Source: Rhizophagus irregularis
Lineage: Eukaryota
DNA: 64,000 nucleotides
Reading direction: 5' to 3'
NCBI RefSeq assembly: GCF_026210795.1
Contig: NC_089429.1
Location: forward strand, 4,278,001 to 4,342,000
The position numbers and the translations under genes were made by a program. Below, in pieces: positions 15,611 through 47,203 of this stretch (the first letter of the stretch is position 1; each line of letters starts with the position of its first letter). The notes under the pieces were generated by a model that made no database searches, was not told the origin of the DNA, and was given only the letters and a program-made list of their open reading frames with translations.

Positions 15611-15717
15611 GTTTTATAAAATTTGATAAAGAATCGGTTATAATTAATATGTATTTTAAAATTTAACGAAATTTTGACAAATAAAGTCAATTTTTCTCTT
15701 GAAAATTAAAATTTTAT

Positions 15718-18944: not shown

Positions 18945-19180
18945 TTTTTTATTATTTTCGTATTATTTTCGTAGGAAATTTTTATTATTTTAGTATTATT
19001 TTCGTATTATTTTCGTAGGAAATTTTTATTATTTTTGTATTATTTTTGTATTATTGTTGTAGGAAATTTTTATTATTTTAGTATTATTTTTGTATTATTG
19101 TTGTAGGAAATTTTTATCATTTTAGTATTATTTTCGTATTATTTTCGTAAGAAATTTTTACTATTTTTGTAGGAAATTTT
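18945..19180. repeat. Degenerate ~42 bp tandem repeat
   Basis: TATTATTTTCGTAGGAAATTTT recurs about 6 times. Confidence 0.75.
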
Positions 19181-20095: not shown

Positions 20096-20310
20096 TAGAA
20101 AATTCGCAAATTTATTATATAAAATTGCCAAATTTGCAAAAAAAAATATTAAATCATAAAAAATTATTGAAATAATCATAGAAGCCAGGATTACATTAAT
20201 TATACATACAAATTATACAAATTTTGTGTTATTCCAAATTTTATAAAAATCGGCCTTTTTACAAATTTGGATTTTGCCAAACTTATTAAACTTATTCAAA
20301 CACTAAACAA

Positions 20311-23300
20311 ATGAGCAGAAAAAAGTTAGTCTCTAGTATACTTGACGATCTTGATGACGAAGAATCACCTTCAAATCAGCCATCTTCTACTCGTAGAAAT
20401 AGATCAATTTCTAGTATAATAAACGAAGAAATAATATCTTCTGCTAGATTAACAAGTAATAAAAGAAAACTAGTAGTTTGTAATTGTCCTGATTGTGATG
20501 GCGACTTGGTGGATTCTCGCACAAAAGAAATTCACGATTTCAGACTTCAAGAATACCAAGATTCACAAGGTACAATTTCGTCTCAAGTTCGTCAACTTGA
20601 AATAGGTGAAACATCAACACCCGCTTCAGCTGGACGAATGATTGATGAATCTATTAGACTAGAATCTGAAGAATCAGATAACAGTAATCAAGATGATGTT
20701 GATGATGAATATCAAAATATTGAATTTAACTTCTTACCTCGACAACATGCAAGAAAGTATACAAATCGTCCAGAAATTTCAGAAGATCCAGAAGATTTAT
20801 CATCATCCGAATATACTACAGAGGAAGATATCTACAGTGATACATTGTCTATAGGTGGTGAATCAGATAATGATCCAATTTCTGGAATTTCTGAAATTTT
20901 TGAAGATTATTCACCGCCTAGTTATGAACCATTTCAAAACCCACCATATTCAGAATCGAATTATGATCGATTTTTATGGATGTTACTTTGGATAATGAAC
21001 TTTCGAACAAGATTTAATATTGCAGAGACAGCTACTGAGACTCTAATAAAATTTATGAAATTGGCCCTGTGCGAGTTCAGTAGTGATGATTTTAATGATT
21101 TCCCAGATTCGCTTTACTTAACAAGAAAGAAGCTTGGATTAAACGACCAATTTCATAGTTTTGTATCTTGTCCGAAATGTTACAAATTGTATAAAAAAGA
21201 GGAAGTGGTAGATTTCAAATAAGAGGACAATCCTGCTATAATGAAATGTTAACACATAGAATTTCCCAATTCTTCAGTTCATAGATCACGTCTTTGCAAT
21301 ATGGCATTGTCTAAAAAAATTAGCGTATCGACAAATCGAACAATAATACAACCTAATTTAATGTATCCGTTTGCTAGAATCAATCAACAACTTGCCACTA
21401 TGTTTTGTTGGCCTGGGTTTGAAAATTCTTTCCGACATTGAGCTAATCGGTCGAATTTTGATAATATTTTGACCGATATATATGATGGGCAAGTGTGAAA
21501 GAATTTTAAAGAATCGGACAATGAAGATTCGCCAAATTTTTTTAGAAGCGAAGTGGCCGATTCTTATCTTGACTTGATGCTGAATCTTAATTGGTTTCAG
21601 CCATATGATAGTACCATTTATAGTATCGGTGTCATATACGCCGCTATATGCAATTTGCCACGCGATATCTGATTTAGACGTGAAAATTTATTGACTCTCG
21701 GCATTTTACCTGGGCCAAAGGAGGTCAGCCTATATAAAGTGAACCACTATTTAGCACCAATAGTTAACAAATTGGAAATACTCTGGGCTGAGTTAACACT
21801 AAATCGTACTTATGAATGCGAAAATGGAAAGAGAGTTCGTGGTGCTTTAATCTTAGTATCATGTGACATTCCCGCCACAAGAAAAATTTGCGGTCATGTT
21901 TCTGCCTTAGTTTCATGTCACAGGTGTAAGAAAAAAGCTAATTATGAAAATGGGCAGCATAATTTTGCCAGAAAGGATGATGTAAACTATTCTGCTCGAG
22001 ATTCGAATGAGCACCGGCAAAACGCATTAGGTTGGCGAAGATGCAACTCAGATGCTACTAGAAAGCACTTCGTCAAAGAAACTGGCGTTAGATGGTCCAA
22101 ATTGTTGTGTCTATCATATTTTGACCCTATTAGATTTATTACAGTCGATCCAATGCATTGCTTATTTCTGGGTATTACGAAGTGGATAGTAAAACGAATT
22201 TGAATCGATGGGGGTATTTTGACACCAAATTCTTTGAACAAAATTCAGAAAAAGATGGATGAGTTTCAGATACTATCCGATTTGGGTCGAATTCCAGGAA
22301 AAATTCATAGTGGAGAGGGATTCACCAATTTTACGGCCGATCAGTGGCGAATATTCTTTACAATTTATTCAACTGTATCACTTTGGGAACACCTTTCAGA
22401 CGTAGATAGAAGAATCCTGAATCATTTTGTCAGGGTTTGTTCGATTTTGGTAAATCGGATTCTAGAATCTAATTTGGTGGATGAAGCCCATAGAAGTCTT
22501 ATCGAAATAGTCAAGCTCATTGAGAATCACCACGGCAGAGATAAGATCACACCGAATCTTCATCTTTCTCTGCATTTGCGTGATTGCTCATCTGATTATG
22601 GACCATTATATGCGTTCTGGTGTTTCTCTTTCGAACGTATGAACGGTATTTTAGGTAAATATCCGTTAACGATTTTTTAACGATTTTAACGATTTCAATA
22701 TTAGCTTATAATTTATTGATTTCGCACTTTTAGGTTCGTTACCAAACAGCAACAGGAAAATTGAGTCTGAACTTATGCGTCGATTAATGTTTGATAAACA
22801 AATCGAAAATATCATAAGTTCAGGTATCGAAGTAAAAGGTCTTGAATTGCTAAACAGTCAGCGTACTATCAGGTCCCATTCAGTTACTGATGAATTTTCG
22901 TCAGATGAGATGCATCGATTTTGGCTGAATTCACAAAATATTAAAGATTCACAGATTTCTGGCAAAGAAGGCTTCCCAGGTGAATTTCTTAAGCCGGTAT
23001 CTCATAATATACTACTTTCAAGTGAAATGTTAAATTTAATGGTCGAATATTACAATGTGACTTACGAATCATTTGGATTTCGGAGGCCTCTTGTAGAAGG
23101 TTTAGATAACGATATAATAATTAGGGTCAAAATTAACCAATTCGGAAGGTGTCGGATTGGTTCAGAAGTCTTTGGATCGTCATTATCGTTAAGACATGTA
23201 AAAAGTTCGTACGTCTTAGCGAAATTTATTACGGATGATGAAGATGTCGACACCTACCCAGGTCAAATTCAGTATTATTTTACTCACGTAGTAGACTTTC

Positions 23301-23566
23301 CGGATAATTCCGTCGAACATTTTCTAGCATACGTTCGTTGGTATAAACACGCAAATTCAACCAATATTCGATACTATTTCAGCAGTGATGAAATTTGTAA
23401 TGTTGAGTTGTGGAATACCGAATTTTATCCAATAAGTCGTGATTGTATAATACCTGTGCATCATATTTTAGGTAGATTTGTACCAGTAAGTTACCAAATC
23501 TCAAACCGGCAAAATGCAAGAGAGTATTTAGCCGTAAATCCAATTAGTAGAAAATACCAATTATAA
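20311..23566 (+). pseudogene. CACTA/EnSpm Tnp2-type transposase with in-frame stops
   Basis: CNCPDC, SCPKC, SCDIPA..CGH, VDPMHCLFLG, TADQW and HLSLHL..YGPLYAFWCFSFERMNG; intron 22655-22733. Confidence 0.92.
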
Positions 23567-23696
23567 ACTTATAAGTTTTAGACATAAATTTATAATAAAT
23601 TGAGTAATTGACTATAAATTTGGTGTTGATTTTTCCGAATTTCTGAATTTTAATGACAAATCATGTTTTTCAAAAGTTAATTTTGATGACTTTTTT

Positions 23697-24265
23697 TGTA
23701 TCAATCAGCCGTCAATCAAATATAATGATTTTTTGCCAAATTTTTATCGAATTTTTATTGAATTTTTATTGAATTATCAATTTTCCATAAATCGGAAGTA
23801 CATATTTGAATATTGGGTAAATTTTAGGTTGATTTGTCATTTTGTCTGATTTTTTTTTTGATTTCAACCAGCATCAATCAGCCGTCAATCAAATATAATG
23901 ATTTTTTGCCGAATTTTTATCGAATTTTTATTGAATTTTTATTGAATTGTCAATTTTCCATAAATTGGAAGTACATATTTGAATATTGGGCAAATTTTAG
24001 GTTGATTTGTCATTTTGTCTGATTTTTTTTTTGATTTCAACCAGCATCAATCAGCCGTCAATCAAATATAATGATTTTTTTCTGGATTTTTATTGAATTT
24101 TTATTGAATTTTTATTGAATTGTCAATTTTCCATAAATTGGAAGTACATATTTGAATATTTGGCAAATTTTAGGTTGATTTGCCATTTGTCTGATTTTTT
24201 TTTGATTTCAACCAGCATCAATCAGCCGTCAATCAAATATAATGATTTTTTTCTGGATTTTCATT
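23697..24265. repeat. Subterminal tandem repeat, ~173 bp x 3.3
   Basis: ATCAATCAGCCGTCAATCAAATATAATG near 23700, 23873, 24046 and 24217. Confidence 0.9.
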
Positions 24266-24375
24266 AAATTGTCCGATTGGCATCAATCAGATGTGCTGAT
24301 TTGTAATGTCAGTCGATTTTGGTCTGATTTTTAGCTGATTTTCCATATGTCCGATTTTTTTGATTTCGACCAGTG

Positions 24376-25710
24376 GTTACTAATAACCATTTTTTTCTTT
24401 ATTTTTTTTAGATTCGGGTGGACTTCCAAAGAACGAAAACCCAAAGGTAAAGATCTTTACTTTATAATTTTTTTTTTAAATTTTATTAATGAACGGTTAC
24501 TAATAACTGTTCTTTTCTTTTTTTATAGGTTCGGGTGGACTTCCGAAGAACGGAAAAAGGAGAACCTTTAAGATTCGTAAGTAATATATTTACGAATCTT
24601 TTGTTTTAATGTTATGAAACAGTTACTAACCGTTCCTTTGATTTTTTTTTTATAGATTCGGGTGGATTTCTGTCTTTCCAAGGAACGGAAAAAACTAAAG
24701 ATTCAGTATGAATCTTTATTTTTTTATTTTTGTTTATTATTACGAACGGTTTCTAACCGTTCTTTTTCTTTTTTTTTAGGTCAGTGTCTTCCAAAGAATG
24801 GAAAAAACCAAGATTCGTAAGTACAAATCTTAGTTTTATTTTTATTTTTTTTTTATAATATTAACAAATGGTTACTAATAACCGTTCTTATTTTATTTTT
24901 TTAGTTCAGTGGGCTTCCGAAGAACAACGGAAAACCAAGATTCGTAAGTAAGTACGAATCTTGGTTTTTTTTTTATTTTTTATTTTTATTTTTTATTACT
25001 ACGAACGGTTTACTAATAACCGTTCTTTTCTTTTTGTAGGTTTCAGGATCTTTAGAAAAAGTGGAACCAAGATTCGTAAGTACGAGTACGAATCTTGGTT
25101 TATTTTTTATTTTTTTAATATTATTATGAACGGTTATTAATAACCGCTCTTTTTTTTCTTTTTATAGGTTTGGTGTCTTGAGTGGATTCTGATATACAGA
25201 AAAAACCAAAGATTCGTAAGTAGAATCTTGGGTTTTTTGCTTTTTTTTGATATTATGGAACGGTTTAGTTACTAACCGTTCTTTTCTTTTTTTTATAGTT
25301 TTGGTGGGTTTCCAAAAGATCAAGATTCGTAAGTATATACGAATACATGAATAATGTGATTGTGGAATTGTAGATTAGCAATACTTATTTGTAATATGCA
25401 TTTATAAATAAAGTTGTGATTTTATTGCGAATATTAAATAAAATGAGTTGTGGCTGAATATTAGTAAATAAATTTAGTACAAATTTGCAATATAAATTAA
25501 GTAACATTCGGAAAACTATTCACCAAAATTTGCTATCTAAAATTGTTCCGAATGTTAACTGAATTTTAGCCGAAATTTCAAGCCGAACTTTAGGCGAGTG
25601 GCAGCGAATTGCAGCCAAAAAATCTGCTAAAGTTCGACCAGCATTAGACCATAAATCAGCCTAAAATCGGCTGGCTGAATTTTGGCCGATTTGGACTATT
25701 TTGACCAGTA
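24376..25710 (+). mobile_element. Truncated non-autonomous CACTG element with a micro-exon array
   Basis: Inverted near-copy of 30923-~32150; ends ..GGACTATTTTGACCAGTA (terminal G>A). Confidence 0.85.
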
Positions 25711-25729
25711 CATCATCTTCACTAAAGTT

Positions 25730-26888
25730 ACCATCTCCGAATAATCCTTCAAGGTAAGAATCTAAACGTCTTATTGTGGCAAATATTCCAATTCTTACCT
25801 TTATTGATTCCAATCGATTTCATTCATCCCGAAGAATATTTTGGATTGTTTGACTGTGTGCTGTGAGAAATGAAGCATAGTCATGCTCTTCAGGTGCAAT
25901 ATCGGCCATAAAGTTTGAGTCTGTTAACTTCTTTCCTATGCGTACCTGATCACAACGTTTAAAGACTACCTCATAATGTGGGTCTGGGTCAATTTGCATC
26001 ATACAGGTTATCTCTTCATTAGTTACTACCGCTTGTGCTTCACGGATTTGGCGAATCTCATCCTTATATTCCTGCAATTTTGCATTTGAGCGGGGATATG
26101 GGATGGACTTGACAGGTACCTGCTTGAGTTCAGCTAGAACTGATCAGATGACTTGTCTGTGTTGGGCACTTCTTGCTTGATGTGTTGACATCTTGTAAAC
26201 TTTTTAGGTTCCTCTTTTATTCAATTACATTTTTTCTGAAAATAAAATTAATTCTCCGCCTATTCTATGAGGGTAAAAAAGATGAAGACGGGTTAATATC
26301 GCCTTCTAAAATTTATTTAGATATAATCTATTCATCGTCATTTGAGTCATCGTCATTTGAGTCACCGAACACATCCTTATCAGGAGTATCCCCATCCTTA
26401 AATAACTCGAAATTGCGCATCATTCAGATGTATTTTCCCTTATTAGTTTCTTCTGATATAAAATTACAATGGAGAATAGCTTGTTCTATAACTACCATTT
26501 CTACGAACCTGGTATACTTTTCTTGACTAATTTTAGTTAATTTATCAGTAAGTTTATCGAGATTTATACCACCATCTGCACAATCTCACCAGTAAGCCTT
26601 TTCAGCTTTCTTACATATATTTGCCACCTGTTCGTATGCCTTCTCGGCTTGTGTGCGCTACTTCCAGAGTACTCGTTCAGCTTCAGCTCTCCAGATTGGG
26701 TTGACTTTTAGAAGATGCGGTCTGAAATTGCTACTTGGAATGCATTCCAGGATATGGCCTACAAGTTCGGGGATTACTGATACTGCGTGTGGGTTTTGGT
26801 GGCTTTTTAGGATCTCCCTATTGATAGCTATAAGATCAGAGACTGTGCAGCCGAAGATTGTTGCCAGCTTTTCAGCGATATATACCAT
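25730..26888 (-). pseudogene. Degenerate coding remnants, including an F-box-like motif
   Basis: VSVIPELVGHILECI..LLKVNPIWRAEAERVLWK resembles fungal F-box N-termini; downstream fragments are broken. Confidence 0.4.
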
Positions 26889-27084
26889 GTTATGTACTGT
26901 TTATCTGTATAGTTACTTGGTACCTACCTTTTAATCAATTACATTTTTTCTCGGTATAAGGGTAATTGCTTGCCTTGCTATTCTGCTCTATTGACTCCAT
27001 GGCTGGTTTCCTGGATGGGTTAATATTTCCTTACCTTTTTTGGCTCTGTTGGCTTTGAAATCCTATTTCTTGTTCGGTTGGGGG

Positions 27085-27275
27085 TAAGTAGGTGAAAATA
27101 TAAATAGGTGATTTAGATTATGAAATAAGTAGGATATAAATGAATTAGATTATGAGATAAGTATGATATAAATAGGTAAAAATATAAAAAAGGTGATTTA
27201 GGTTATAAAATATGTAGCATATAAGTAGGTAAAAATATTAATAAGCGATTTAGATTATGAGATAAGTAGGTGAGC
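27085..27275. repeat. Degenerate tandem repeat
   Basis: TAAGTAGG and GATTTAGATTATGA motifs repeated 4-5 times. Confidence 0.6.
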
Positions 27276-27802
27276 CAGAATTGGGATTTTCATACTACTT
27301 TAAGAAGCTAATACATATTATTATAGAGTAGTATTCTGCACGAATCAAATTTCTCCTCTGAAATTCAATTCGATTCAGATTCGATTCAAACTCGATTTGA
27401 CCTCCAAAAATTATTATCTCAGGATCTAGTGATCCAATTTCAATGATCTTTTTTTAATTGATAGGTCTCATTTCTCTGATCAAAATAGAAAAAAATTATC
27501 AAAATTGGACTGCTAGATCAAAAGTTATTCGTAAAATACGTTTTATTATTTGGAAGCAATCAGGGTCACACTGTATCACAAATCGATTCCTAGTATAGTT
27601 ACACTGATCATAAGACATTTTGAGCAAATGTTCTAGATATTAATCAGGTAATTTGTATTACCATTTGTTAATCACAGTAACAAAAAATTTCTGTACTTGT
27701 CAAAAACCTAAAATTGCTTTCAATTACTGCGACTAATGAGATAAGTCATCTGTTTGATATAATAATGAAATCGTTGTTAAAAAAAGCCACTATAATTCTA
27801 TT

Positions 27803-28234
27803 TCAGAGTTTAGAGAACGTACTAGGGGCTTTGACTATTATGTGAATATTTTCTTCAGTCGTTAAAGCTTTAAGTTTTCTTAAAGTAATCAAATATGGCG
27901 AATCAATGATAATATGAGTATATTCATTAGAAGGCTGTTCTTCCCAATAATCACTAATTATCCCCCTAATAAGCTTAATGTCTTCTTTTTCATCATTTTT
28001 TAGAACGAGTTTTGAGAATTTCTCTTCGTTATCATTGGAAATATGAACTTTCTAAAGTTTCAAGTCATCATCATTAATATCAGTAAAAGAGTTGCCTTTT
28101 TTTTCTTTGAGATGTCGCATAATTTCATCTTGAAGTTTGATACTGATATCACTGGTAAGAACTTTTATCTCAATTTTTTCCGAGTTTGCCTCAATGTCTC
28201 TAAAAAGGTGACAAGTAAGGGTAATTTCCTTCAT
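27803..28234 (-). pseudogene. Crinkler (CRN) N-terminal domain remnant
   Basis: MKEITLTCHL..DDDLKL*KV (LWKV with TGG>TAG)..ISDYWEEQP..HIIIDSP..ENIHIIVKAP. Confidence 0.7.
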
Positions 28235-29247
28235 TATCCTATAAATGTTACCCATGGTCAATAAAACAACGTATTTATATTTAGTTTCTATTATCGGAGT
28301 AACTTCTAATTTTTATTTTCCCCACTACCAACCTATTATGTTAATATTCTGTCAATAATTGTGCCTCATGAGATGGAAAAACTGACATCCTTTTAGGATT
28401 ATCAATTATCCGGTTAACAAAGATCTAAGTAATCTACTAACGTAATTGAGAAACTATATAAAATTTACTTACTTTGCTTTCCAATACTTCATTTCCAAAA
28501 AATTCTATCAGAGATATTAAACGTTATAACTGTAATACTGTTCGTCATTAGGCATTATACAGAAGTAGTGTTAATGTGTTTAGAAATATCTTGACACAAT
28601 ATTTTCTCCATAATATAAATAGACGAGTATGAATAGTAAATGACTCCTTTGCCAAGTTAAGTAGAGCAGAAACAAAATTACCTGTTCATTGCTTTGCCTA
28701 CAAACTTTGGGCCAATATTTATCCGATTAACTATTTCAACATAATTCTGGTTTGTTCTTCTACCAATTATATTGCAATACACTAGGAGTCTTTTTCATTG
28801 CAGCTTTAAATTCAGGAATTACATTACCATCGAAAACATATAGAGCGATTCTATTTTCCAAAGTCTTTTATTGTCGTTGGTACAGACGTCAGAAATTTGT
28901 ACTCTCTTCTTTAACAAGATGGGTACATTATTTCAGTCAGAGACTGCTCGAAGAGCACATCTTTGAAATTTACCTGAAGGGTGCTAAAAGCGTAGGTAAG
29001 AGAAATAGTAAATGAAACGAAATATCTTCAGAAAGACAACTGTCACACGCAACAAACCTAATAAGTAATAACTTCAAATTCTAAAAAGATATTCATTAAT
29101 CATATGATAACCATTTAGTCAAATGCTGAAATAAATATGCCAACAAAAATACTGTGCATTTTTTGTGTAATCATCATCGCATCTAAAATTATAAAATGAA
29201 GACTGTATTCAATTTTTCTGAAAACTGGAATTAGACATATTAAGAAA

Positions 29248-30280
29248 CACAGGTCGAAAGGGCACCATTGTCCAAAATTCAAAAAATGCAAATTCCATAT
29301 TTTCCTGGAAAATGGTGGGAAATTGTGGAAAATGCTGCATTACGCTGAGCAATTTTTGAAATAGTATTGTTACAACATTGTCCGATTTAGCAAATTTTAT
29401 GAAAATTTGGGAAAATGCTACATTATATCTCAAATGTAACATTGCGTAACATTTTGTAACATTGTTATAACATTGTCATTGAAATCAAATTTTGCTTTTT
29501 TTTTGTCAAATGTTCCAATTTTCTTGCAAATGGTGCATTTTTATGAAAATTCCACATTTTACTTCAAATGTAATAACATTTCATAAAATTGTTATAACAT
29601 TGTCAATTAAAATCAAATTTTGCTTTTTTTTTTGTCAAATGTTCTAATTTTCTTGCAAATGGTACATTTTTATGAAAAATGCTGCATTTTATCTCCAATG
29701 TGATGTCATTGTAACAACATTTCATAAAATTGTTATAACATTGTCAATTAAAATCAAATTTTGTCAAATATTCCAATTTTCTGGCAAATGGTGCATTTTT
29801 TATGAAAATTCTATATTTTTTTGTCAAATGTTGCATATTTTCAGTAAATTTTACGTTTTTTTGGTCAAATATTTCATTTTCGTCAGAATGTTAAAATATT
29901 ACAATTTTTTTTTTGGAAAATGCTCAATAATATAGCATTACACTGGAAAATGTAGCATTTCACCAAATTACACTAAAAAGCATCACAATTATCACATTTT
30001 TTGGAAAATTCCACATTACATTAAATTATACTAAAAAATGTAGCATTATACTAAATTATGCGGCATTGCACTAAAAAATACCACAATTACACTAGACAAT
30101 GTAGCATTACACTAAAAGTACCACAATTATTATATTTTTTAGAAAATTTTGTGTTATACTGGAAAATGTAACATTATGCTAGAAAATGCGGAATTGCACT
30201 AAAAAATGCGGAATTGCGCTAAAAAACACAAAAAAATACTACAATTACACTGGATAATGTAGCATTACACGTAATTACAT
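29248..30280 (+). mobile_element. Left end and subterminal repeats of a CACAG-terminal non-autonomous element
   Basis: Starts CACAGGTCGAAAGGGCACCATTG, followed by ~1 kb of degenerate repeats; no right TIR nearby. Confidence 0.55.
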
Positions 30281-30922
30281 TAAAATTGTTAATTTTTATT
30301 TTTATTTATTTGTAAATTACGGACATTATTAAATTTATAATATTCTAAATGCATTATTTAACATTAAATACATTGTTAATACAAACAATGTATCAACACG
30401 ATGTGTTGTGATGTTTAATTTAGTACTAAACCTTACTACTGAAGACCCTCTTTTTGTCACTATAAACAGGTGGAGGGAGCAGCAATGGCTCTCCCCCTAT
30501 AGGTACTTTATGGCCTCTACCTGTTTACAGAGGAGGGGCTTTTCGTAAAGTTGTTAGATAGATATATATATGTGTATATATATAAGTATATATATACATC
30601 TATCGTAATTAAATTAAAAAAAATTATAAAAAAAAAAATTTTTTTCGGGGAAAATGCCCCTATTTATATAAAATACATGTCACGTGTATCACATGACATG
30701 AACTTTGATTAAACTGCACAGCTGCAGTTCATTTTTTAACTAACCTAAAAATGCTAAAAATAAACTATTGCAGCCGCAGCCGCAGCCGCAGTTTTTTTTT
30801 AGAGTTTAAAAAAAAACTAATTTAGTTTATTTCGCTCTTCCCTTCTTCTCACCATTTTCCCGTCACGTTTCTCCTTCCCCCTCTCTCCCCACTTCCCTCT
30901 CTCTCGACCTTCCCCCTCACCA

Positions 30923-33847
30923 CACTGGTCAAAATAGTCCAAATCAGCCAAAATTCAACCAGCCGATTTTAGGCTAATTTATGGTCTAATGCTGGTCGAA
31001 CTTTAGCTGATTTTTTGGCTGCAGTTCGCTGCCACTCGCCTAAAGTTCGGCTTGAAATTTCGGCCAAAATTCAGTTAACATTTGGAACAATTTTAGATAG
31101 CAAATTTTGATAAATAGTTTTCCGAATATTACTTAATTTATGTTGCAAATTTGTACTAAATTTATTTACTAATATTCAGCCACAACTCATTTTATTTAAT
31201 ATTTGCAATAAATCACAACTTTATTTATAAATGCATATTACAAATAAGTATTACTAATCTACAATTCCACAATCACATAATTCATGTATTCGTATATACT
31301 TACGAATCTTGATCTTTTGGAAACCCACCGAAACTATAAAAAAAAAGAAAAGAACGGTTAGTAACCGTTCCATAATATTAAAAAAAAGCAAAAAAACCCA
31401 AGATTCTACTTATGAATCTTTGGTTTTTTTCTGTTTATCAGAACCCATCCGAGACACCAAACCTATAAAAAAGAAAAAAAAAGAGCGGTTATTAATAACC
31501 GTTCATAATAATATTAAAAAAAAATAAAAAATAAACCAAGATTCGTAAGTACGAATCTTGGTTCCACTTTTCTAAAGATCCCGAAACCTACAAAAAGAAA
31601 AGAACGGTTATTAGTAAACTGTTCGTAGTAATAAAAAATAAAAATAAAAAATAAAAAAAGAACCAAGATTCGTACTTACGAATCTTGGTTTTCCGTTGTT
31701 CTTTGAAAGCCCACTGAATCTAAAAAATAAAATAAGAACAGTTTATCAGTAACCGTTCGTTAATATTATAAAAAAAAAATAAAAATAAAACCAAGATTCG
31801 TACTACGAATCTTGGTTTTTTCCATTCTTCAGAAGACACCGACCTAAAAAAAAAGAAAAAGAACGGTTAGAAACTGTTCGTAATAATAAACAAAAATAAA
31901 AAAATAAAGATTCATACCAAATCTTTAGTTTTTTCCGTTCCTTGGAAAGTTGGAATCCACCCGAACCTATAAAAAAAAATCAAAAGAACAGTTAGTAACC
32001 GTTCCATAACATTAAAAAAAAGATTCGTAAGTATATTACTTACGAATCTTTATCTTTGGGTTTTCGTTCGTCGGAAGCCCACCGCACCTAAAAAAATAAA
32101 GAAAAGAACGGTATTAGTAACCGTTCATTAATAAAATTAAAAAAAAAGAAAAAATTATAAAGTAAAGATTCGTACTTACGAATCTTTATTTTTGGGTTTT
32201 CGTTCATCGGAAGCCCACCCGATCCTATAAAAAAAAAGAAAGAATAGTTAGTAAACCATTCGTAATAATAATAAATAAATAAATAAATTAAAGATTCTTA
32301 CGAATCTTTGGGTTTTCGTTCTTCGGAAGTCCACCCGATCCTAAAAAAAAGAAAAGAACGGTTATTAGTAAACCGTTCATATATTAAAAAAAAAACAAAA
32401 AAAATTAAACCAAGATTCGTACTTACTTACGAATCTTGGTTTCTTGGTTTTCCGTTCTTCGGAAGCCCACCAGATCCTAAAAATAGAAAAGAACGGTTAT
32501 TAGTAACCGTTCGTAATATTTTTTTAAAAAAAAAAATCCAAGATTCTTACGAATCTTTGGAATTTTCCCATTCTTCAGAACACGGAAGCCTACCCGAACC
32601 TATAAAAAATAAAAGAACGGTTATTAGTAACCGTTCGTAACATTTTTTTTTAAAAAAAATAAAAAAAAAATCCAAGATTCTTACGAATCTTGGAATTTTC
32701 TAGTTCTTCGGAACACGGAAGCATACCCGAACCTATAAAAAATAAAAGAATGGTTATTAGTAACCGTTCATAATATTTTTTTTAAAAAAAATAAAAAAAA
32801 ATCCAAGATTCTTACGAATCTTGGAATTTTCCCGTTCTTCGGAACATCCGATCCTAAAAAAAGTAAAGAACGGTTATTAATAACCGTTCATAATATTAAA
32901 AATAAACAAAAAAAAAATAACCAAGTTTCAAACTTACAAAACTTGGTTTTTCCATACTTCGAAAGCCCACCCGAATGGCCGAACCTAAAAAAAATAAAAA
33001 AGAACGGTTAGTATTAACCGTTCATATTAAAAATATAAAAAAAAACTCCAAAGAATTCGTACTTACGAATCTTTGGGGTTTCTATACTTCGGAAGCCCAC
33101 CCGAACGGCCGAACCTAAAAAAAAGTAAAAAAAGAACGGTTAGTAACCGTTCATATTAAATTAAATTAAAAAAATAAAAAATAAATAAACCAAGTTTCGT
33201 ACTTACGAAACTTGGTTTTCCATACTTCGGAAGCCCACCCGAACGGCCGAACCTAAAAAAAAAGTAAAAAAAGAACGGTTAGTAATCGTTCATATTAAAT
33301 TAAATTAAAAAAATAAAAAAAAAATAAACCAAGTTTCATACTTACGAAACTTGGTTTTTATATACTTCGGAAGCCCACCCGAACGGCCGAACCTAAAAAA
33401 AAAAGTAAAAAAAGAACGGTTAGTAACCGTTCATATTAAAAAAAAATAAAATAAACTCCAAAGAATTCGTACTTACGAATCTTTGGAGTTTCTGTACTTT
33501 GGAAGCCCACCCAAAAGCCGAACCTATAAAAAAAAAGTAAAAAAAGTGAAAGGGAGAAGGGAAGGAAAGAAAAGGGAAGGAAGGAAAAGGGGAAGAAGGG
33601 GAAACAAGGAAGGGGAACGAAGGAAAGGAAAGGGGAGGGGAAGAAAAAAATTATTAAAAGTTTAAAAAAGGATGTATAAGATGATCCTTTTTTAAACTTT
33701 TAATACGCATAATGCGTAACGCATAACGTTTGATAAATCATATATGTCGAAACTTGGCCGATTTTTAATAATTTACGAAATTTGGCCGAAATGTGTGACA
33801 GATCAGCCGATTTGTCACATGACCGAAAGTTTTGATTTCGACCAGTG
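30923..33847 (-). mobile_element. Complete 2925 bp non-autonomous CACTA-type element
   Basis: TIRs CACTGGTCAAAAT / ATTTCGACCAGTG; 3 bp TSD CCA at 30920-30922 and 33848-33850. Confidence 0.92.
31295..33530 (-). repeat. Micro-exon/hairpin-intron array (~20 units)
   Basis: On the minus strand each unit reads polyT-TAG|exon..CCAAGATTC|GTAAGTACGAATCTTGG..GAACGGTTACTAATAACCGTTC. Confidence 0.85.
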
Positions 33848-33849
33848 CC

Positions 33850-35315
33850 ACCATTCCCATTCCCTGTTGGTATGGCAATTATCGTTACATTTGGAAAGTC
33901 AGGTAAGTTTCGTACCTTACGAAACTTAAATTATTATTTTTTTACTTTTTTTTCTTTATTAAGAAACGTTTTAACGTTTCTTTTACCTTTTTTTGTAGGT
34001 TCCGTTACTCCAAGATTCCAAAATGGCAAAATGTAAGTTTCGTTTTAATGAAACTTATTATATTATATTTTTTTTTTAATTAAGAAACGTTCTCTAACGT
34101 TTCTTATACTTTTTTTTGTAGGTTTTAGTGCTCCAGGATTCTGAAACAGAAAATGTAAGTTTCGTTTTAACGAAACTTATTATATTATATATTTTTTTTA
34201 ATTAAGAAACGTTCTTTAACGTTTCTTTTACTTTTTTTTGTAGGTTCCGGTGTTCCAGGAGCGTAAATTCATTAGACTATAGCTGGAATAAACCAACACT
34301 AGATTATTAGGTCTTTTTAGAAACGTTAAAAGACCTGTGAGAATGCCAAGTTTCAGCATGAATATTCATTAATGACTCTCCTTGATTCCGAAATGGAAAA
34401 ATGTAAGTTTCGTTTTAACGAAACTTATTATATTTTTATTTTTTTTTTAATAAAGAAATGCTCTAACGTTTCTTTTACTTTTTTTTTGTAGGTTCAAGTG
34501 CTCCAGGATTCCGAAACGGAAAAATGTAAGTTTCGTTTAACAAAACTTATCTTTTTTGTTTTTTTAATTAAGAAACGTCCTAACGTTTCTTTTACTTTTC
34601 TTTTCTTGTAGGTCTCCAAGTCGGGTGTCATTGGAAAGTGAAAATGGTAAGTTTCACAATGAAACTTATCATGTTTTATTTTATTTTTTATTATTAGAAA
34701 TGTTTTTTAACGTTTCTCTTTTATTTTTTTTGTAGATTCGAGCGGGATACTTGACTTTGGTAAGTTTTGCAACATAAACGTTGCGAAACTTAATTTTTTT
34801 TTAATTTTTTTTAAGAAACGTTCTAATGTTTCTCTCTTTTTTGTAGATCGATTTTGGGAGTCTGATTGATCTGGAGCTCCCTCCCTCCAGTTTCAGAAGT
34901 CTTGGGTTTGGATAACGTTCAGGTTTCGAAGTATAACTTCGAAACTTCAATTTAAATGGTGAGTTTCATGACAAATATCACGAAACAAGTTTTTTTTGAT
35001 TTTTTTTATTAGGAACTGTTTACTAACGTTCCTTTTCTTTTTTGTAGGTTCAGGATATCTGGGAAGCTAACTTAGGAAACATGAATCGCGTAAAACCATT
35101 GTTAAATAGAAGCCATTACTTTCCATTCAGGTATTGGATATGGCTTGGTAAGTTTCGTACATTTCGTTACGAAACTCCTGTTTTTTTTTTAAGAAACGTT
35201 CTAACTGAACGGTTTTCTTTTTTTGTAGATTATTGTAATGAAATAACAAAAGTAAACAGTTCTTTGGTTCCTTGCTTGGTGAGTTTCGAAGATTAACCTT
35301 CGAAACTTTTTGTTT
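33850..35315 (+). repeat. Second micro-exon/hairpin-intron array (~11 units)
   Basis: GTAAGTTTCG..CGAAACTT, AAGAAACGTT..AACGTTTCTT and TTTTGTAG repeated. Confidence 0.8.
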
Positions 35316-35899
35316 TTTTTATATTTGTTTTTCTTTAACATTATTGTACTTAATTACATATTATAATGATAAATTGTTAATAAAATTAAAATCATAATAA
35401 ATTGTTATAAAATTTGCATAAAATTACGCCAAATTGTTGCTTAATTACATCAGGAACTTTTAATACGCGAAGTACTTCGTAAACTTTATACGATGTAAAA
35501 TTACGTAATATTTTGTAGTAATATTACAGAGTACTTCGTCATATTATGTAGAATTAAATTTTATAATATTTAGATATATTACATAGTGTAGTCTTACATA
35601 ACGTACTAAAGTATTCCATAATTTTATTGCTACGTATATTTTTGAAAATATAATAGATTGTAATTTTATGTAATATATCGAAGCACTCCGTATTTTAATG
35701 TAATGTAAAATTTTGAAATTATTAAGGTATAATCTTACGTAATATTCCAAGTAATTGTCCACTTGTATATCATACCAGATACTAAAATGAGTAATAACCG
35801 TTGGTCAGATGATGATGATGTGCTAGAAAGTCTCAAACTGGAAATAATCTTCATATATACTGCGACAAATCATATTTATATATTTTTTTAATTTCTTCT

Positions 35900-36600
35900 T
35901 TTTTTAATTTCTTCTTTTTCGTAGGTTTCCTTCTAGAACGGCAATTTCGGCTTAATTGATTAGTATGTTTATTTTTTTTAAATTTATTTTTATTTTTAAA
36001 ATTAATAACTTGCTTTTTCTTCTTGTAAGCTTCTGCCTAGAAATGGTCAGTTGGTTAGTATTTATTTATTAAATTAATAACTTCTTGTAGGCTTCTTCCA
36101 AGATGGCAATTTCGGCTGAGTATAGGAACGCTTTTTTGATTTTTTCTTCTCGTAAGGGTACGTTGGCAATTAGTTTAATATAGAACACTTAGTTAATTAG
36201 ATTTTTATTTTTTTTTTAATTTATTTTTATTTTTAAATTAATAACGCCTTTTCTTCTTGTAGGCTTCTTCCAAAATGGCAATTTCAGCTGAATATAGGAA
36301 CGCTTTTTTGATTTATTTTTTTTTCTTCTCGTAAGGTACGTTGGCAATTAGTTTAATATAGAACGCTTAGTATTTTTATTTTTATTTTTTTTTAAAATTT
36401 ATTTTTATTTTTAATTAATAACTTGCTTTTTCTTCTTGTAGGCTCTTCCAAGATGATAAGTTCGACATGTGCCTGCCTCTTAATATAGGAATGGTTGGTT
36501 GGTTAGTATTTATTTATTAAATTAATAACTTCTGAATATAGGAACACTTTTTGATTTTATTTTTTTTTTCTTCTTGTAAGGGTACGTTTTGCAATTAGTA
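35900..36600 (+). repeat. Micro-exon-like repeat array
   Basis: Repeated TTCTTGTAG|GCTTCTTCCAAGATGGCAATTTC units. Confidence 0.6.
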
Positions 36601-38228
36601 GGTCTATGACTTGGCTCTCGTATTGAAAAGACCCCCCAAGGTACCATGGTAAAGGTGTTGTATTCATTGTAGGGTATTCGTACCTGATAGGTAACCTCCT
36701 TGAACCATCTAAGAAATACCATTAGTACCGGGAGAAGAGGGGGTGTATCAGTAAATACGATAATAGGCTGAAAGTTGTATGTACGCGTACAAAAGCAACG
36801 AAAAATAACATTACAAAAGCCATCAAATTTCTTATAAAAATCATTTTAAATTAAATAATTTTAAATTAATCATCTGTTTATATATATATTATGTTTAAAA
36901 TTTTATTTTGGTTACAGAAAATTATTACTAAGGCCTTTAGTGAGCCACTGTATATACATATATATTTTTATATAAAACTTTATTATAATCGTAAAACGAA
37001 AATTGCATCATGTCAATAAAGTATCTACACTAAATACAAAACTAAAAACTTTGCTAATACTAAAACCCATTCCAAATATGACATACTATCCATAAATTTA
37101 TAACCATAAAACAAAAATTAATTCGCAGCGGATCCAATATTTTCTTACGTATAAATTAGTAAAGACCATAGAATCCATGTGATATAATAAAATCATTTTA
37201 CCAATTTTTTAAATTCCTATATACATATAACGATAGTACAGTAAATTTTGTTGTAATTAACTTTATTAAATATATTATCAATGTAGCTTTATCTGCTTAC
37301 TTTATTATGGAATTGTAACTGTGCTTGCTGTGTTTGCTATATAAGAAAAACAAAAATACAAAAAAAAAAGAAAATAAATCAACGTAAAGAAGTTTCACGA
37401 TCAATATATAAGGTATCTAAAATAAACTACTACTAGTACCCTATATATTCCCTGTAGTATAAAGGCTGCCACCTGAATTTAAAAATCTGGTAAGTAGAAC
37501 ACCAATTGTGGTATGAATGTTCATCATATTAAACTCAGCAGGTATACCAAGATTAATAAACATAAGGATGAAAAGTAAGAGCGAAGGAGAACCGATCCCA
37601 GAAGAGAGAGGAAAAGGTGGAAAATTCTTAATCTCATATCATATCTTGCATCTCCCGTCAACTTTTAACTAATGTAGTAAGTTGGTGACACTATTAGGCA
37701 GGAGGCAGAGTTGGAGTAACAGAAGATATTTAAAGGAGGGAATCGAAATGTCCATAAAGTGAATAATAATAAATAGTAGAAAAGTCGTAAAAAAGGGGGT
37801 AGTCAGATGAGGTTCAGGAGGTGAACGGAATGATCCCATTAGGAAATAGGACCAGGATTATGTTGTATAACAATCTTTGTTGTCTAAAAAGGAATGTGGA
37901 CTTGATGAGAAAATATTTCTCAGCAAAAGGAGAGAGACCTACTAATATTGAGGCTGTGCAATATACTAAAAGTCGAATAAATATTTTTTTTAGATAGCGA
38001 TTTATCTCCAATCTTTGTGTCATCAATGTGTCAAATAAAGAAAATTTATAAATAAAATAAATAAAACTATAAAATAAAAATAAAATTAGAGTGAACGAGA
38101 GAACAAGAACAAAAATTGAATTAAATAAATTTAATGACGTGATTTGTGGTATGGCAGTATTATTGGAATATACTTTTATTTAAAAAAAAATATACAATTA
38201 TTTTTTTCTTAATCGAGTAGATAAATGC

Positions 38229-40908: not shown

Positions 40909-43900
40909 TTACAAATGAAATTGTCTATTGATAGGTATGACTGCCATGTAAGTAATCAGTTTTCGGTTGCCTATTGTAAATTTACAAGGTAAAAATCGGC
41001 TATATATATTATGAATCGGTATAATACAATCTCTTGATAATTCGTGAAAATAATCTTTCCACAATTCAATATTACAGCTTTTATCATCCTGATTGTCGAT
41101 TCTGCAATGAAATCTTGTTTTTTCCCTCGGTACCCACATATACCATTTTATAAAAGCAAGTCGATGTGTCTTTGCACCGGTTGGAAGCGGAACTGTGTGC
41201 TCAAAATAAAACTGCACTTGTCCGAGAAAAATATCGACAGATTCATCATCTTGTATAAACTTGCTTGTGACATATGAACTTCTTTGATATCGAGGTGCAA
41301 GTGCAGATCCAAAGATTTCAGTAGCAATCCGAATACGACCAAATTGAGACACATTGGGTGATACAACGATTGGTTGATTTTCAGAATTGCTTGATGTCAA
41401 ATTATTTGAAACAAATTCGGCAATTGATACAAAATCCCTATTGTATGTATCATTGTAATATTTTATCAGAAGTTTATATATAGTATCTGGTAACGATACT
41501 TGCTTTTTTGGGGTAATCATTTCTCCGGGAAATTCTTCACAACCGGTAATTGTAACATCAATATTTTGATGAAAGGTTCGCATAAATCGGTAAAGTTCAG
41601 CAAAATCAAACCCATCATAAGCCGCTAAACTTCCAGTAGTTAGCCTATTTTGTACCAGAGATAATGCTTCCATCAATTTTTGATTATCCGATTGGGCGGA
41701 TATTAGGCAATTTAGCCGTGAATTTTGCGTGATGATTCGCATCAATTCTAGTTCAATAGCTCGCTTACTATTTGGAAAAGAACCTACAGCAAGATGATAA
41801 ATAAATTAATTCATTTATACTATTTATTAAATTTAACTTATACCGATAACTTATACCGATTTATATATATATTTACCTAATAATCCGTTCATTCTTTCAA
41901 ACGAGTAACACCAGAAAGAATATAATGGGCCATAATCATGGCAACAATCGACAATATGGAGTGATAAATGGATGTTTGGAGTTATCATCTCTTTTCCGTA
42001 ATACGTTTCAATTAAACGAGCTACTTGAAGCAATCAGCTATGAGCTTCGCGCAATGCATTGGTGGCGATAATTTGACAGACAAGCAAAGAGCAAGCTCTT
42101 ACAAAATTTGCTAATATTTCACGATCGGAAGTATCTAGGAGATCCCACATCAATGGAGTCGCGTAAATTAAAATAAACGATTTCCATTGATCAGCCATAA
42201 ATCCAGAAAACCCTTCCCCAGTTGCTATTTTATACGGAATCCTTCCGATATCCGCTGGTACTTTAAGAGCTTTTGCTCTTCTTTCCATTAATTCAAGGTC
42301 CTTTTTAGTGATTTTTCCGCTATCTATCCATAATTTCTTTACGATCCAATGAGCAATCTCCAGGAATAAACAGTGCATTGGATCGACAATAAGATGTCTT
42401 ATCAGGTTGAAATAAGGCAATCTTAGCATTTCCGACCACTGCACGTGAGTGTCGGAAACATGTTTTTTTCTTTCTTCCTGAGTTCTGCACTGTCTCCAAA
42501 GTTCGGCATTTCGTCGATGCTCATTTGGATCTCTGGAAATGTACCAATCATCCATATCGTCAAACTCACCAAAATTAAACCTTCTTCCGCTGCTATTGGC
42601 TGTTTTGTAGCATCGATGACAACCGACCAGTGCCGAAATATGTCCACATAATTTTCTAGCAGCCGGTATGTCATTGCTGCAGCAAATTACGGCCATCTGA
42701 ATTCTTTTACCAGATGGTAGATCGATGCCATCCCAGAATTCTAACAATTTGTCGACAATTGGACTAAGAAAATGATTAATCTTGTGTAATTTTACTTCTT
42801 CCAGTCCTGGGAAAAGTCCAAGATATAGCATGTTTTCTCGTTTAAATCTAATATCACGGGGAAGATTACATATGACCCCATAGATAACACCAGAACTGTA
42901 AGCTGATGAATTAAATGGCTGGAACCAGTCTAAATTAATCATGATCCCAAGATTAAAATCGGCCATCTCATTTGTAAAAAATTGAGTATCCGGGTTGTTT
43001 AAGGAAGATGGAAAGCTTTTCCATACATCTCCATCGTAAATATCGGTGTATAAGCCTGGTTCATTTCTCCGATTTGTCCATTTCTGAAGTGATTCTTCAA
43101 AGCCTGGACGTTGATACATCACAGTCAATTGCTTTTTCAAAGTTGGTATCGGATATAACATTCTGGGTCTTTGGACAAATCTATTAACTACCGGGACTTT
43201 ATTAGTTAATTCTGTTCCACATATCCGCCTTTTATTACGCATAGGATGGTTAGGAAATTCCACATGAGTGCATTGGAATCCGGTATTTGTCTCATTTTGT
43301 GGATTTCCTGGCAAAATTTCTGATATTTTATACAGAGTGTTGCATTCAGGACATACCGCACATGTCCTATCTCGTTTATTAATTCCTAAAAGTTTTTTTG
43401 CCATATAAAAACTTGTAGGAAAATTTTCAAAACGTGTTCGATCAGTATCCAATAATACCATCCTGAAAAACTTAATAAGTGACTCAATAGCAACATCCGG
43501 AACACGAAATCTCGCTTGGTATTTGAATATCCACAGAAGTATCCACGAATCATTAAAATTAATGTTCGTGTCAAAATATTCATGGTCTGACTCAAGATCA
43601 TTAAAATTGGGAGCGGTAAATTCTTCAATTGGAACATCGTCTTCATCTGTAGTAGAAGCTCCATCATCATCGCTCGGTACTTTATCTTTAAGTTGAACTG
43701 GTTCCAGTTTATTAGGTTGTTCAAGATTTACATCACGAAACTTATTGTGGCATTTTCGTCTTTTCGGTCCATCAATCGGCTCATTATCAGTTTCATTATC
43801 GTTTTCATCATCATCATTTCGTTCCGATTCTTCATCATCATTTCATTTCGATTCATCATCATCGTTTCGTTCCGATTCTTCATCATCGGTTCGTTCTGAT

Positions 43901-44282
43901 TCATCATCATCGTTTTGTTCTGATTCATCATTATCATTTCGTTCCGATTCTTCATCATCATCGGTATCTGATAAATTCTCAACGACTCTAGTTCTTCTTT
44001 TTTTCTTTCTTTAGAACTGTTGCTAGAATTGATTTTTTTTCTTTCTTTAGAAATGTTATGTTTTTTGCCGGTTCCTCTTGATCGAGAAGCTTGAGATCCG
44101 GTAGCGATAGCTTGGAGTTGTTCTATTTCTTTGCGTTATCTCTCAAATGTTCTGGGATCCACCAATTTACTACCTCCGCAATGCAATAAACATTTACATT
44201 CAACCAAATTTCTAGTTTTAGGACCACTTTTAGTAACTTTCGAACGATTTCTATTAACACGATATTTTCTTGGTCTTGGCAT
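40909..44282 (-). pseudogene. CACTA/EnSpm Tnp2-type transposase with a few lesions
   Basis: ATG at 44282; CPEC, DIYDG, INLDWFQP, NDIPAARKLCGH, VDPMHCLF, MADQW and YGPLYSFWCYSFERMNG; intron 41784-41876; frameshifts and stops. Confidence 0.92.
43805..43965 (-). repeat. Coding acidic repeat (DDEESERN-like)
   Basis: ~24-27 bp units TTCGTTCCGATTCTTCATCATCA. Confidence 0.75.
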
Positions 44283-44387
44283 ATTTGGTTTGATATAAAT
44301 ATTTACCAACCCAATTTTATTTTAAATTTAAATAACCTGATTTAATAACTTTGAAGTTTGTTTATAAAATTCATCGTAATTAGTTCT

Positions 44388-44630
44388 CAATCAGTTAACT
44401 TATTTCATTTAGTTGATTAAATAAATTCTTAAAATTTCCATATCAATCAATTAATTTATTTCATTTAGTTGATTAAATAAATTCTTAAAATTTCCATATC
44501 AATCAATTAATTTATTTCATTTAGTTGATTAAATAAATACTTAAAATTTCCATATCAATCAGTTAGCTTATTTCATTTAGTTGATTAAATAAATTCTTAA
44601 AAATAATATATCAATCAGTTATCTTATTGC
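44388..44630. repeat. Tandem repeat, 56 bp x ~4.3
   Basis: TATTTCATTTAG at 44401, 44457, 44513 and 44569. Confidence 0.9.
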
Positions 44631-44989
44631 AATTAATTAAAAAATAATAATATCAATCATGATTGAATAAATGGATTTTATGTATCAATTAATCGTATGA
44701 ACGTATAAATCGTAGAAATTGCGAGAAAATTACTATCACTATTATCTTTAATATTAATTGCAACGGTTAATTAAATCAGTTTATTTTTATTTTTAAATAT
44801 ATCAATAGTAACTAACAGTTAATTAAATCAGTCTATTTAAGCTAAAATAAACTATCGGGAATATATATATGAGCTAATTTAGACTCGACTTTTTCTTCTC
44901 GCTTGTTACCGATTTTTGTAACATAACCCTATATTTTTCTATCCGTGAATTTATTAAAACATATTCTTACTGAAATATTATAATTAAAT

Positions 44990-47203
44990 ATGACTAAAAA
45001 ACATGAAAAACATGAAAAACATGAAAAGAAGAAAAAATCTGGAAAACGGTACCACTCGGATATAGAATCCTCCAATAGCGAAAAACCTGAAGCTAAAGTG
45101 CGAAAGACCAATAAAACGGTTCCAAAGAAACAAATGGACAAACAACGGTAATTTAATTTATTTGATTTTCGTCAGATTCTTTAATTTCTCGATTTATTAG
45201 CGATCGATACCTAATATTAAACCAACGAAAAGACAAAAGCCCACTTTAATCGACTTTGTTGAAGACGAAGAAAGAAATATTGGTATATTTCGATATATTT
45301 ATGTAATCATGCCTGAATTTATTATATCACCTAATGATTATGAATTTAAAGTACTCGATAAAGAAAAACGAACAAAAAGACGTCAATCGGAATCAATGAA
45401 AGGCCAAAAAGGCCAAAAGTCCGGTGTAATTGACTTAGTTGACGATGATGACAATGATCTGATTCAACAGGATGAGAGAGATAATGATCAAACCGGTATG
45501 TTATTAATGTATATATTAATAAGTATATTATAATAAGATTATCAAATTTTATCAATTTTATCACAATTTTTCTTTTTTAGCGTTCCAGGAGCAGGTCGAA
45601 GAATTGAGTCAGTTGATCCAGAAAATAACGAAAGGTAAACAAAAAGCAGCAAATCCGAAAGATATGATTATTGACTGGTCGGGAGTAGAAACCTCAGATT
45701 CTCCAGAAAAGAGCCAATACGTATCCCGATCACTGAAAAAGAACTGATATATCCAAGCTTATGGAATTGCAAAAGAATATGGAGTTGCCGGATCATCAAA
45801 AAATGCCCGCCTCCATCCTCATCCTCATCGTCATCGTCATCCTCATTCTCATCCCCATCCCCATCCCCATCCTCCTCATTTTCATCCTCAAATTCGTCGT
45901 TTTTTCATTACGAGGAAATGGATCGGGATCTAAGGACTGCTTTAAGGGTAACTATTTTTTTTTTTTAGTTCAGTTTAATTCCCCAGATTGTTTGCTAATC
46001 AGTTGATATTCTTACGATTAGAACAAAATTGCCAGAATTATGGACCGACTTCCGGAAGATAAAGCATTAAATACTAGGAAAACTTTTGATAGTCAGCGAA
46101 AGTTGGTCCAAAATAACATAATTCCGGTAGTACAAAAAATGATCAATAAGAATATATTCTCTGTATCCGATGGTGTGATTAAGCATATCGTGCATGAGAG
46201 ACATCATCACCAGAGAGCTACTACTCAATAGCGAGAGGGATGCCAATTGGAAAGATCTCGAAAAAAGAAGAAAGCATACAAATTCAAGATGAAGTGATGT
46301 AAATATTAAATCGTTGTTTTTATATTACCTTATCTTATAATTTTCTATTAATTATTTAGAAGCGGGAAAGACGAAATAAAACTATCGACAAGTTAAAAAA
46401 ATTAAAAGATCGATTGATAAATAAGTTCCACACCAACGAGCTCCGGCCTCTTCAGACTGATAATCGATACCACAGTCCGGAGGTATCGGAGACCGATAGC
46501 GATAACCCTAATAAGCGAAAGATCATCATACGGGATCTCAAATGGAGATCAGCTACCGTAAGTATTCGAATAATTTTTACCAATCAGTGCATAATAATTC
46601 GTATTTTTATTCTTCTTTTTTTTTATAGCTACGCTCTTTTTTACAAAATTACGTCGATAATGCGGCGTCAAATGCTCGACGCGTAAGAAAACGGGTGTAT
46701 GATACCGAATACGCTCCTAATGAGAACAGTGCACCTGTTAATGCCCCAAATGGGCAAAAGTCGGTTACAAAGGATCGTTGAAACATTTAGTGGAAAAATA
46801 TAGTGCTAATCGCGAAGAGGTAGAGGACGATAAAAGCCAGGAAGACGACGATAAAATCCAAGAAGACGATGATAAAATCCAAGAAGATGACGATAAAAGC
46901 CAGGAAGACGACGATAAAAGCCAGGAAGATGACGATAAAAGCCAGGAAGATGACGATAAAATCCAAGAAGACGACGATAAAAGCCAGGAAGATGACGATA
47001 AAATCCAAGAAGATGACGATAAAAGCCAGGAAGACGACGATAAAAGCCAGGAAGATGACGATGCAACCGGCAGAGAAAAGAACGAAGATCAGGAAAAAGA
47101 GCAGGATGAAGAAGTGGACTATAGGAAAAAAAGGAAAAAGAGAAGTGTAAGTCTTGTTTCAGAAGAATACGATAGTAGTGATAGTAGTAAATCGGTGGGA
47201 TGA
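44990..47203 (+). pseudogene. Accessory multi-exon gene of element D
   Basis: ATG at 44990; several GT-AG introns; NRYHSPEVSETD motif; DDDKSQE repeat tail; premature stops. Confidence 0.7.
46825..47063 (+). repeat. Coding tandem repeat, 21 bp x ~11 (DDDKSQE/DDDKIQE)
   Basis: GACGATAAAAGCCAGGAAGAC units. Confidence 0.95.

Follow-up and report, generated by a model that had tools for sequence, protein, structure and literature searches.

A tandem array of micro-exons on the minus strand of the window (the whole 64-kb stretch of Rhizophagus irregularis DNA analysed here) is very probably a spliced, ORF-less array carried inside a non-autonomous CACTA-type transposon. In the repeat family to which this array (array B) belongs, splicing removes some of the hairpin-bearing introns. 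The first-pass annotation of the window had recognised the array itself and had overlooked both the enclosing transposon (element B) and a second copy (copy A). The coordinates of these features, and of the other arrays in the window, are collected in Table 1.

Table 1. Element B with its parts and read-supported introns, copy A, and the other arrays, in window positions.
Feature	Position	Strand	Description and basis
Element B, non-autonomous CACTA/CMC-type, 2,925 bp	30923..33847	-	inverted CACTGGTC ends; encloses the entire array
TSD CCA, left copy, 3 bp	30920..30922	+	flank sequence
TSD CCA, right copy, 3 bp	33848..33850	+	flank sequence
5' terminal region of element B	33650..33847	-	20-bp perfect hairpin at 33652-33705
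CT-rich leader fused to intron-type T-tract plus TAG	33524..33650	-	sequence; RNA depth
Micro-exon array B, 18 exons and 17 introns	31304..33523	-	donor stem and branch-point stem in each unit; unit alignment, folds
Intron 6	32733..32815	-	missing from reads of a paralogous copy, which differ by six letters at the joint; 12 reads, X24
Intron 8, 74 nt	32477..32550	-	CT..AC joint exactly as predicted; 32/22/27/20 reads (X21-X24)
Intron 9 as read, 86 nt	32341..32426	-	CT..AC joint; 10/13/18/12 reads (four runs)
3' tail and terminal region of element B	30923..31303	-	alignment; RNA depth
Copy A, 3' 1.3 kb of the same element	24376..25709	+	8 exons plus end; alignment to element B
Array C, about ten intron-like units	33848..35310, leader 30830-30922	+	leader interrupted by element B
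Array D, tandem 178-bp exon-intron-like units	35800-36600	+	both stems absent; RNA depth low
Array E, about a dozen diverged short introns and micro-exons	48780-50145	+	some with branch stem
Array F, tandem 112-bp exon-intron-like units	51530-52200	-	without strong stems
Array G, short introns and micro-exons	60050-61130, 61790-62150	+	three C-type donor stems

The termini of element B at 33847(-) and 30923(+) each carry CACTGGTC and are identical at 12 of their first 13 bases, giving the CACT-type terminal inverted repeats of CACTA/CMC transposons. The element is bounded by a target site duplication (TSD) of 3 bp, the length that Pack-CACTA elements typically generate according to the accessible part of PMC6379663; the CCA match lies in a C/A-rich flank and is modest evidence alone. 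The first 18 bases of the 5' end are identical to an end at 24375, downstream of a tnp2 (PF02992) gene, and the 3' end is similar to the CACTGGTC end at 19576, beside a tnp2 frame. PF02992 is given as a marker of the CMC superfamily in the available text of PMC5751038. The list of open reading frames holds no transposase frame inside element B, and no ORF of at least 100 aa except one antisense frame (32287-32640). Judged by the sequence features tested (the ends, the TSD, the lack of a transposase, and ends in common with tnp2 elements), element B is a non-autonomous CACTA/CMC transposon. Its leader is likely a promoter or start region from which the first donor has been deleted, and a poly(A) region likely lies near 31250. 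The element is inserted in the CT-rich leader of array C.

Element B resembles the Pack-CACTA and non-autonomous CMC-EnSpm elements covered in the accessible parts of two sources (PMC6379663, PMC5751038) in its CACT-type inverted ends, 3-bp TSD, lack of a transposase and unrelated cargo, and in having truncated and nested copies nearby. It differs from Pack-CACTA in that the cargo is a self-amplified tandem exon-intron array without a long frame, and not a recognisable piece of a host gene; the Pack-CACTA side of this comparison consists of plant elements (PMC6379663).

Across the window, GC content is 23-37%. The 17 window frames scanned include three with tnp2 (PF02992) domains, as well as Plavaka and Tc1-type transposases, and parts of one tnp2 frame are 80-91% identical to Rhizophagus irregularis proteins. 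Three degenerate tnp2 (CMC) elements lie at 12387-19576, 20290-24375 and 40909-47634; in two of the three, a second multi-exon gene, opposite to tnp2, heads to the end type that array B also faces. Perfect hairpins occur close to CACTA-type ends, one of 20 bp in the 5' terminal region of element B and one of 16 bp at 47563-47607. A broken Plavaka transposase gene (PF18759) at 56100-58917 (+) has a CACAGGTC end inside it at 58002. A 406-aa stop-to-stop frame at 7206-8426 (-), which follows a 12-bp repeat, carries a Uma2 restriction-endonuclease-like domain (PF05685, E 4.7e-08).

The organisation described at first pass, with tandem minus-strand units each containing a T-tract plus TAG, a short GC-richer exon, a stem spanning the exon/intron junction and a GAACGGTT/AACCGTTC branch-point stem, was confirmed. 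The tandem arrangement held, whereas the estimate of about 20 units of 110-130 bp gave way to 18 exons (30-49 nt) and 17 complete introns (74-93 nt), in units of 116-140 nt. Each of the 17 introns has a T-tract followed by a terminal TAG, and GT opens 16 of them; the only GT that has been lost is intact in copy A. GAACGGTT occurs 13 times in array B versus once in 106,300 bases (both strands, outside masked arrays), far more than chance would give. T-runs are followed by AG in 18/56 cases in array B and in 36/354 and 50/287 cases outside, a control that is mildly informative because each intron holds several T-runs and real introns exist outside the array.

Fold z-scores of the 17 exon-plus-intron units of array B range from -1.7 to -5.8, and one excised intron scores -3.0. 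The donor stem across the exon/intron junction has a longest unbroken run of 7-15 bp and the branch-point stem one of 8-9 bp; the stem extension reported earlier near 33456 is present. Both splice signals had been placed in hairpin loops. The predicted folds bear this out for the branch-point A in 12/17 units (it is buried in 5/17) and less often for the donor, whose positions -3 to +2 are almost wholly paired in 10/17; GT and branch A are both exposed in 5/17. The sense strand folds lower than the antisense strand in 13/17 units because of its U-rich composition, and we draw no support from this. In unit 3 the two strands are similarly unusual (antisense z -6.2, sense z -4.9).

The predicted junctions of array B were fixed before RNA reads were mapped to the region 30400-36800. 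The reads came from about a quarter of each of four runs matching the species label (X21-X24; at most three samples, two studies), with X24 labelled as possibly DNA; the libraries appear unstranded, and these runs supply all of the joint evidence. Among the 15 joints listed of 340, two are predicted GT..AG introns (introns 8 and 9), found in 4/4 runs. Intron 9 uses the second of two tandem GTAAGT donors, which the fold places in a hairpin loop; the first donor is at 32430. The paralog joint at intron 6 is one of the 12 listed out of 613. Two more of the 15 listed joints connect an exon end to the exon start of a non-adjacent unit, as expected of spliced paralogs, and the other 11/15 match no predicted intron and appear to be low-complexity or stem cross-matches. 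The comparison with RNA reads that the first-pass annotation had called for thus found 2/17 introns joined exactly and a third by a paralog, at the level of the family. The introns are U2-type in their signals (16-17 of 17), the remaining 14 being predicted.

About one in ten mapped reads is at least 99% alike (448/4444, 412/4877, 376/3642 and 237/2721), and 76-91% of mapped reads continue into unlike sequence. Since the majority of reads derive from other copies or strains, they establish splicing for the family and not for the locus at 30923-33847. In X21-X23, depth per direction is 13-124 over array bins versus 0-3.4 over the terminal regions of element B, a difference of one to two orders of magnitude in most bins. 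Around the leader, depth is 5-55 per direction in 33396-33609 and about 1-3 in 33610-33823, and below 31256 it drops to 0-3.4 per direction. This confinement to the array argues for RNA and against DNA carry-over. We rejected a pure satellite without splicing.

When fully spliced, array B gives a product whose three frames all contain stops and whose longest ATG frame is 64 aa. A coding micro-exon gene, producing variable short repeat peptides through alternative splicing, would suit the G/K/R-rich peptide motif that recurs in the spliced product, but the motif does so in shifting frames, exon lengths are multiples of three in 5/18 exons (the first-pass annotation had likewise seen no frame-keeping), and differences in A-run length shift the frame between copies A and B; we rejected this reading as highly improbable. 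The joints at introns 8 and 9, the array-confined depth and the 64-aa limit instead lend family-level support to the heavily spliced non-coding transcript with structured introns that had been proposed. Schistosome micro-exon genes join many tiny frame-keeping exons in one ORF; array B shares the many tiny exons and has neither the frame-keeping nor a protein.

The introns of array B are better conserved than its exons, as they are in snoRNA host genes, and a host gene whose introns are the product, as small RNAs of mirtron or snoRNA-like type, and whose exons are disposable would leave this pattern. Against it, array B has no snoRNA or miRNA match: a search of 23500-37000 with Rfam, which speaks to known RNAs, gave 10 matches at E up to 1, none near the gathering score. 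The suggestion of a mirtron or small-RNA source did not survive examination of the introns either. The ends of the excised introns are unpaired in 15/17 cases and form 2-3 pairs in 2/17, the stems are short and splicing cuts the donor stem; we rejected a mirtron on these grounds, and a small-RNA host in general has very little probability. Copy A and element B face each other, 5.2 kb apart, and transcription running through either would yield a long inverted-repeat RNA from which small RNAs might derive.

Copy A is 89.8% identical to element B over 1,368 columns and colinear with it unit by unit, and its 5' side is cut by another CACTGGTC end. Within array B, the exon bodies of the 17 units share a mean pairwise identity of 0.62, compared with 0.91 in the donor arm plus GT and 0.92 in the branch-stem arms. 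Identity is higher between neighbouring units (0.765) than between distant units (0.704), as expected from tandem duplication, and array B likely grew by duplication of exon and intron together. Substitutions between copies A and B number 27/252 in exons, 9/112 in branch-stem arms, 7/328 in other intron bases and 14/373 in the 3' flank, with changes at 0/14 AG and 1/14 GT splice dinucleotides. Set against the 3' flank, the divergence of exons and branch arms indicates no present purifying selection on them. CpGs are altered in one copy or the other at 19/49 sites, so the two copies were likely methylated despite their introns; both appear to be decaying.

Pattern scans covered metagenome contigs, viral contigs and prokaryote genomes. 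The single metagenome match, contig L001, has the same stems as array B, with 68/68 core pairs Watson-Crick, and different exons. Five B-type branch stems lie in L001:1-1029 (-), where one intron is without a T-tract and a different terminal region follows an E-type last exon. This last exon (67 bp) is 90% identical to the last exon of array E, which points to module sharing and not to a host source. Viral contigs gave 0 matches in the pattern scans. The single prokaryote-genome match (L002), with neither a second unit nor a branch stem, was rejected as chance.

Covariation is weak. Among 20 aligned units, double changes occur in 3/15 consensus pairs; the consensus term is -0.09 and reflects few independent events. 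The paired-arm change cited there (AAGTTTCG/CGAAACTT, A-U to U-A) is present in 4/20 units, three of the four belonging to one 5' block of related duplicates. In the branch-point stem there is 1 double change in 140 cells; G-U versus A-C pairs number 3 versus 5 in B and 2 versus 4 in A (5 versus 9 together, from few independent events). G-U is thus not above A-C, and these counts give no evidence of RNA-strand selection on pairing.

The donor stem has an inverted loop in unit 16, is lengthened to 15 bp in unit 12, has lost its tip in copy A and is remodelled in L001. Inverted loops, lengthened stems and double changes of several bases within short perfect stems are footprints of template switching in the accessible part of a study of rRNA stems (PMC8794818); the stems of array B differ in lying on a repeat's splice signals. 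The changes in these stems resemble DNA template switching, and the match in the types of change suggests that splicing and DNA-level palindrome repair likely both act. Template switching had been posed as an alternative to splicing; its footprints are there, but with signs of both processes the two are not exclusive.

These observations bear on the main rival of the explanation that we prefer, in which the array is a neutral by-product. On this view the transposon spread a captured piece of exon and intron that slippage or unequal exchange had multiplied; it is spliced since its signals persist, the stems repair themselves at the DNA level, and neither element nor host benefits. The divergence of copies A and B without protection of exons or branch stems, the G-U count, the covariation term, the antisense fold of unit 3 and the existence of intron-dense arrays without such stems (D and F) are all in keeping with it. 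Neutrality accounts less well for the retention of TAG at 17/17 and GT at 16/17 introns while exon bodies stand at 62% identity; palindrome repair cannot preserve TAG, which is not part of any stem. Moreover, arm sequence is kept and not pairing alone, in L001 as well. We consider the neutral reading unlikely, though it is the strongest competitor.

At least five other intron-dense arrays (C-G) lie in the 64-kb window, making at least seven with A and B. In array C a stem of 9-13 bp, which varies in sequence between introns, has the donor at its base, and the branch stem differs in sequence from that of array B; arrays B and C have the core donor palindrome in common, with the donor at its tip in B and at its base in C. 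Array C offers more independent stem changes than array B. Its RNA depth is mostly 2-28 per direction, and none of its joints is among the 15 listed of 340. Array G lies between the Plavaka gene and a CACAGGTC end at 63886. Arrays B, C and G, as well as one intron of E, have stems at the donor or branch point.

In plant En/Spm transposons, subterminal repeats are binding sites for a transposon-encoded protein. Were the palindromes here also DNA sites for such a protein, splicing would be incidental, and the location of the array inside a CACTA-type element, the conserved arm sequences, and a core palindrome that is common to B and C though the donor shifts from tip to base would follow. The stems are, however, tied to the donor and branch point in each of the arrays that have them, the motifs hardly occur outside arrays, even close to the tnp2 elements, and TAG and T-tracts are kept in a single orientation, so that we judge this reading quite improbable.

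In the available text of PMC3609843, introner-like elements are high-copy introns gained at new gene positions. Array B is like these fungal elements, and like same-gene intron duplications, in its many similar U2-type introns, canonical signals and stable predicted structure (see the unit and excised-intron z-scores above). It is unlike introner-like elements in that its exons are homologous too (62%), which indicates that exon and intron were duplicated together, and in its stem over the exon/intron border and its non-coding RNA. We rejected an introner-like element because the flanking exons are homologous and the units tandem, as checked within the array; array B is closer to the same-gene duplication class of that source, at a larger scale. 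The spliced TE-derived lncRNAs of Blumeria hordei are likewise fungal, transposon-associated, non-coding and lowly expressed; in the part of the source available (PMC10648671) they have a mean of 2.3 exons, with >5 exons in <1.9%, and many are antisense to TE genes, whereas array B has 18 micro-exons in a tandem repeat.

The explanation that we tentatively prefer, at slightly less than an even chance, is that the array is a transposon's spliced cargo without a long ORF, grown in tandem, whose splice signals are kept as gene-like transcription helps the element stay active. The account starts from direct observations (the ends and TSD, the 18-exon layout, family splicing at introns 8 and 9, array-confined RNA and faster drift of exons). 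Tandem duplication of one exon-plus-intron unit would build the array, and an autonomous tnp2 element would supply transposase in trans and spread the element. Transcription would start in the CT-rich leader and stop near 31250. The two short stems would arise, and regain perfect pairing, through DNA template switching; in RNA they could hide or expose the donor and branch A and thereby lower or tune splicing. In what is the weakest step, transcribed, spliceosome-loaded copies would escape methylation more often and hence be copied more. Expressed TEs of R. irregularis have lower mCG in the accessible part of PMC8647823, which gives indirect support to a benefit of transcription for the element.

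The same stems could instead act as a silencing trigger: by slowing splicing they would stall spliceosomes, which would send the RNA into RNAi, and the resulting small RNAs would silence the element family. Work in Cryptococcus by Dumesic et al. in 2013 reportedly described such a route, in which stalled spliceosomes pass RNA to RNAi (SCANR). SCANR substrates are poorly spliced transposon RNAs that yield small RNAs, and array B may be likened to them, its poor splicing being putative. A donor predicted to be buried in 10/17 units would fit, as would the supported joints (introns 6, 8 and 9), which all fall in the 5/17 units with GT and branch A exposed, a post hoc pattern from paralog reads whose own introns are unseen. 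Intron T-tracts are deeply covered (depth 74-180 at 32478 and 33395 in X21-X22), but these reads over introns derive from many loci, in libraries that are unstranded, and are no gauge of retention. TE-derived small RNAs occur in R. irregularis, according to the available text of PMC8647823. The array RNA shares no sequence with the transposase, however, so only array-bearing copies could be silenced, and a silencing trigger seems to us improbable.

Extending the preferred explanation, AM fungi might harbour an undescribed, genome-wide class of transposon-borne 'splicing arrays', RNAs with numerous micro-exons and no ORF in which structured splice signals alone are conserved. The job of these arrays would be splicing itself, either as a gene disguise against silencing or through a share of RNA passed to RNAi that the stems set. 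We regard this as possible but on balance doubtful; the transposon placement is drawn from element B and copy A. If true, at least seven arrays per 64-kb window suggests very many per genome.

No description of such arrays was found in the literature searched, which was mostly outside subscription papers and excluded supplements. Term look-up in the accessible text of four Rhizophagus papers (PMC8647823, bioRxiv 10.1101/2022.10.19.511543, PMC11075540 and PMC10639083) likewise returned no such array. The element may sit unnamed in the TE library of PMC11075540 or in the annotations of bioRxiv 10.1101/2022.10.19.511543. About two-thirds of R. irregularis TEs are unclassified according to the available part of PMC11075540, and the array puts a name to one recurring component of this fraction.

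Array B likely marks an overlooked class of transposon RNAs, with a putative purpose. The arrays illustrate a route to mass intron gain, through tandem duplication combined with transposition, that differs from that of introners, and orphan-gene counts in the annotations of AM fungal genomes may be inflated by them. If selection keeps the splice sites in these non-encoding RNAs, they would provide a natural setting in which to ask whether fungal introns protect mobile DNA against silencing, and many natural stem variants, lying side by side, with which to probe how short stems at the donor and branch point affect splicing efficiency.
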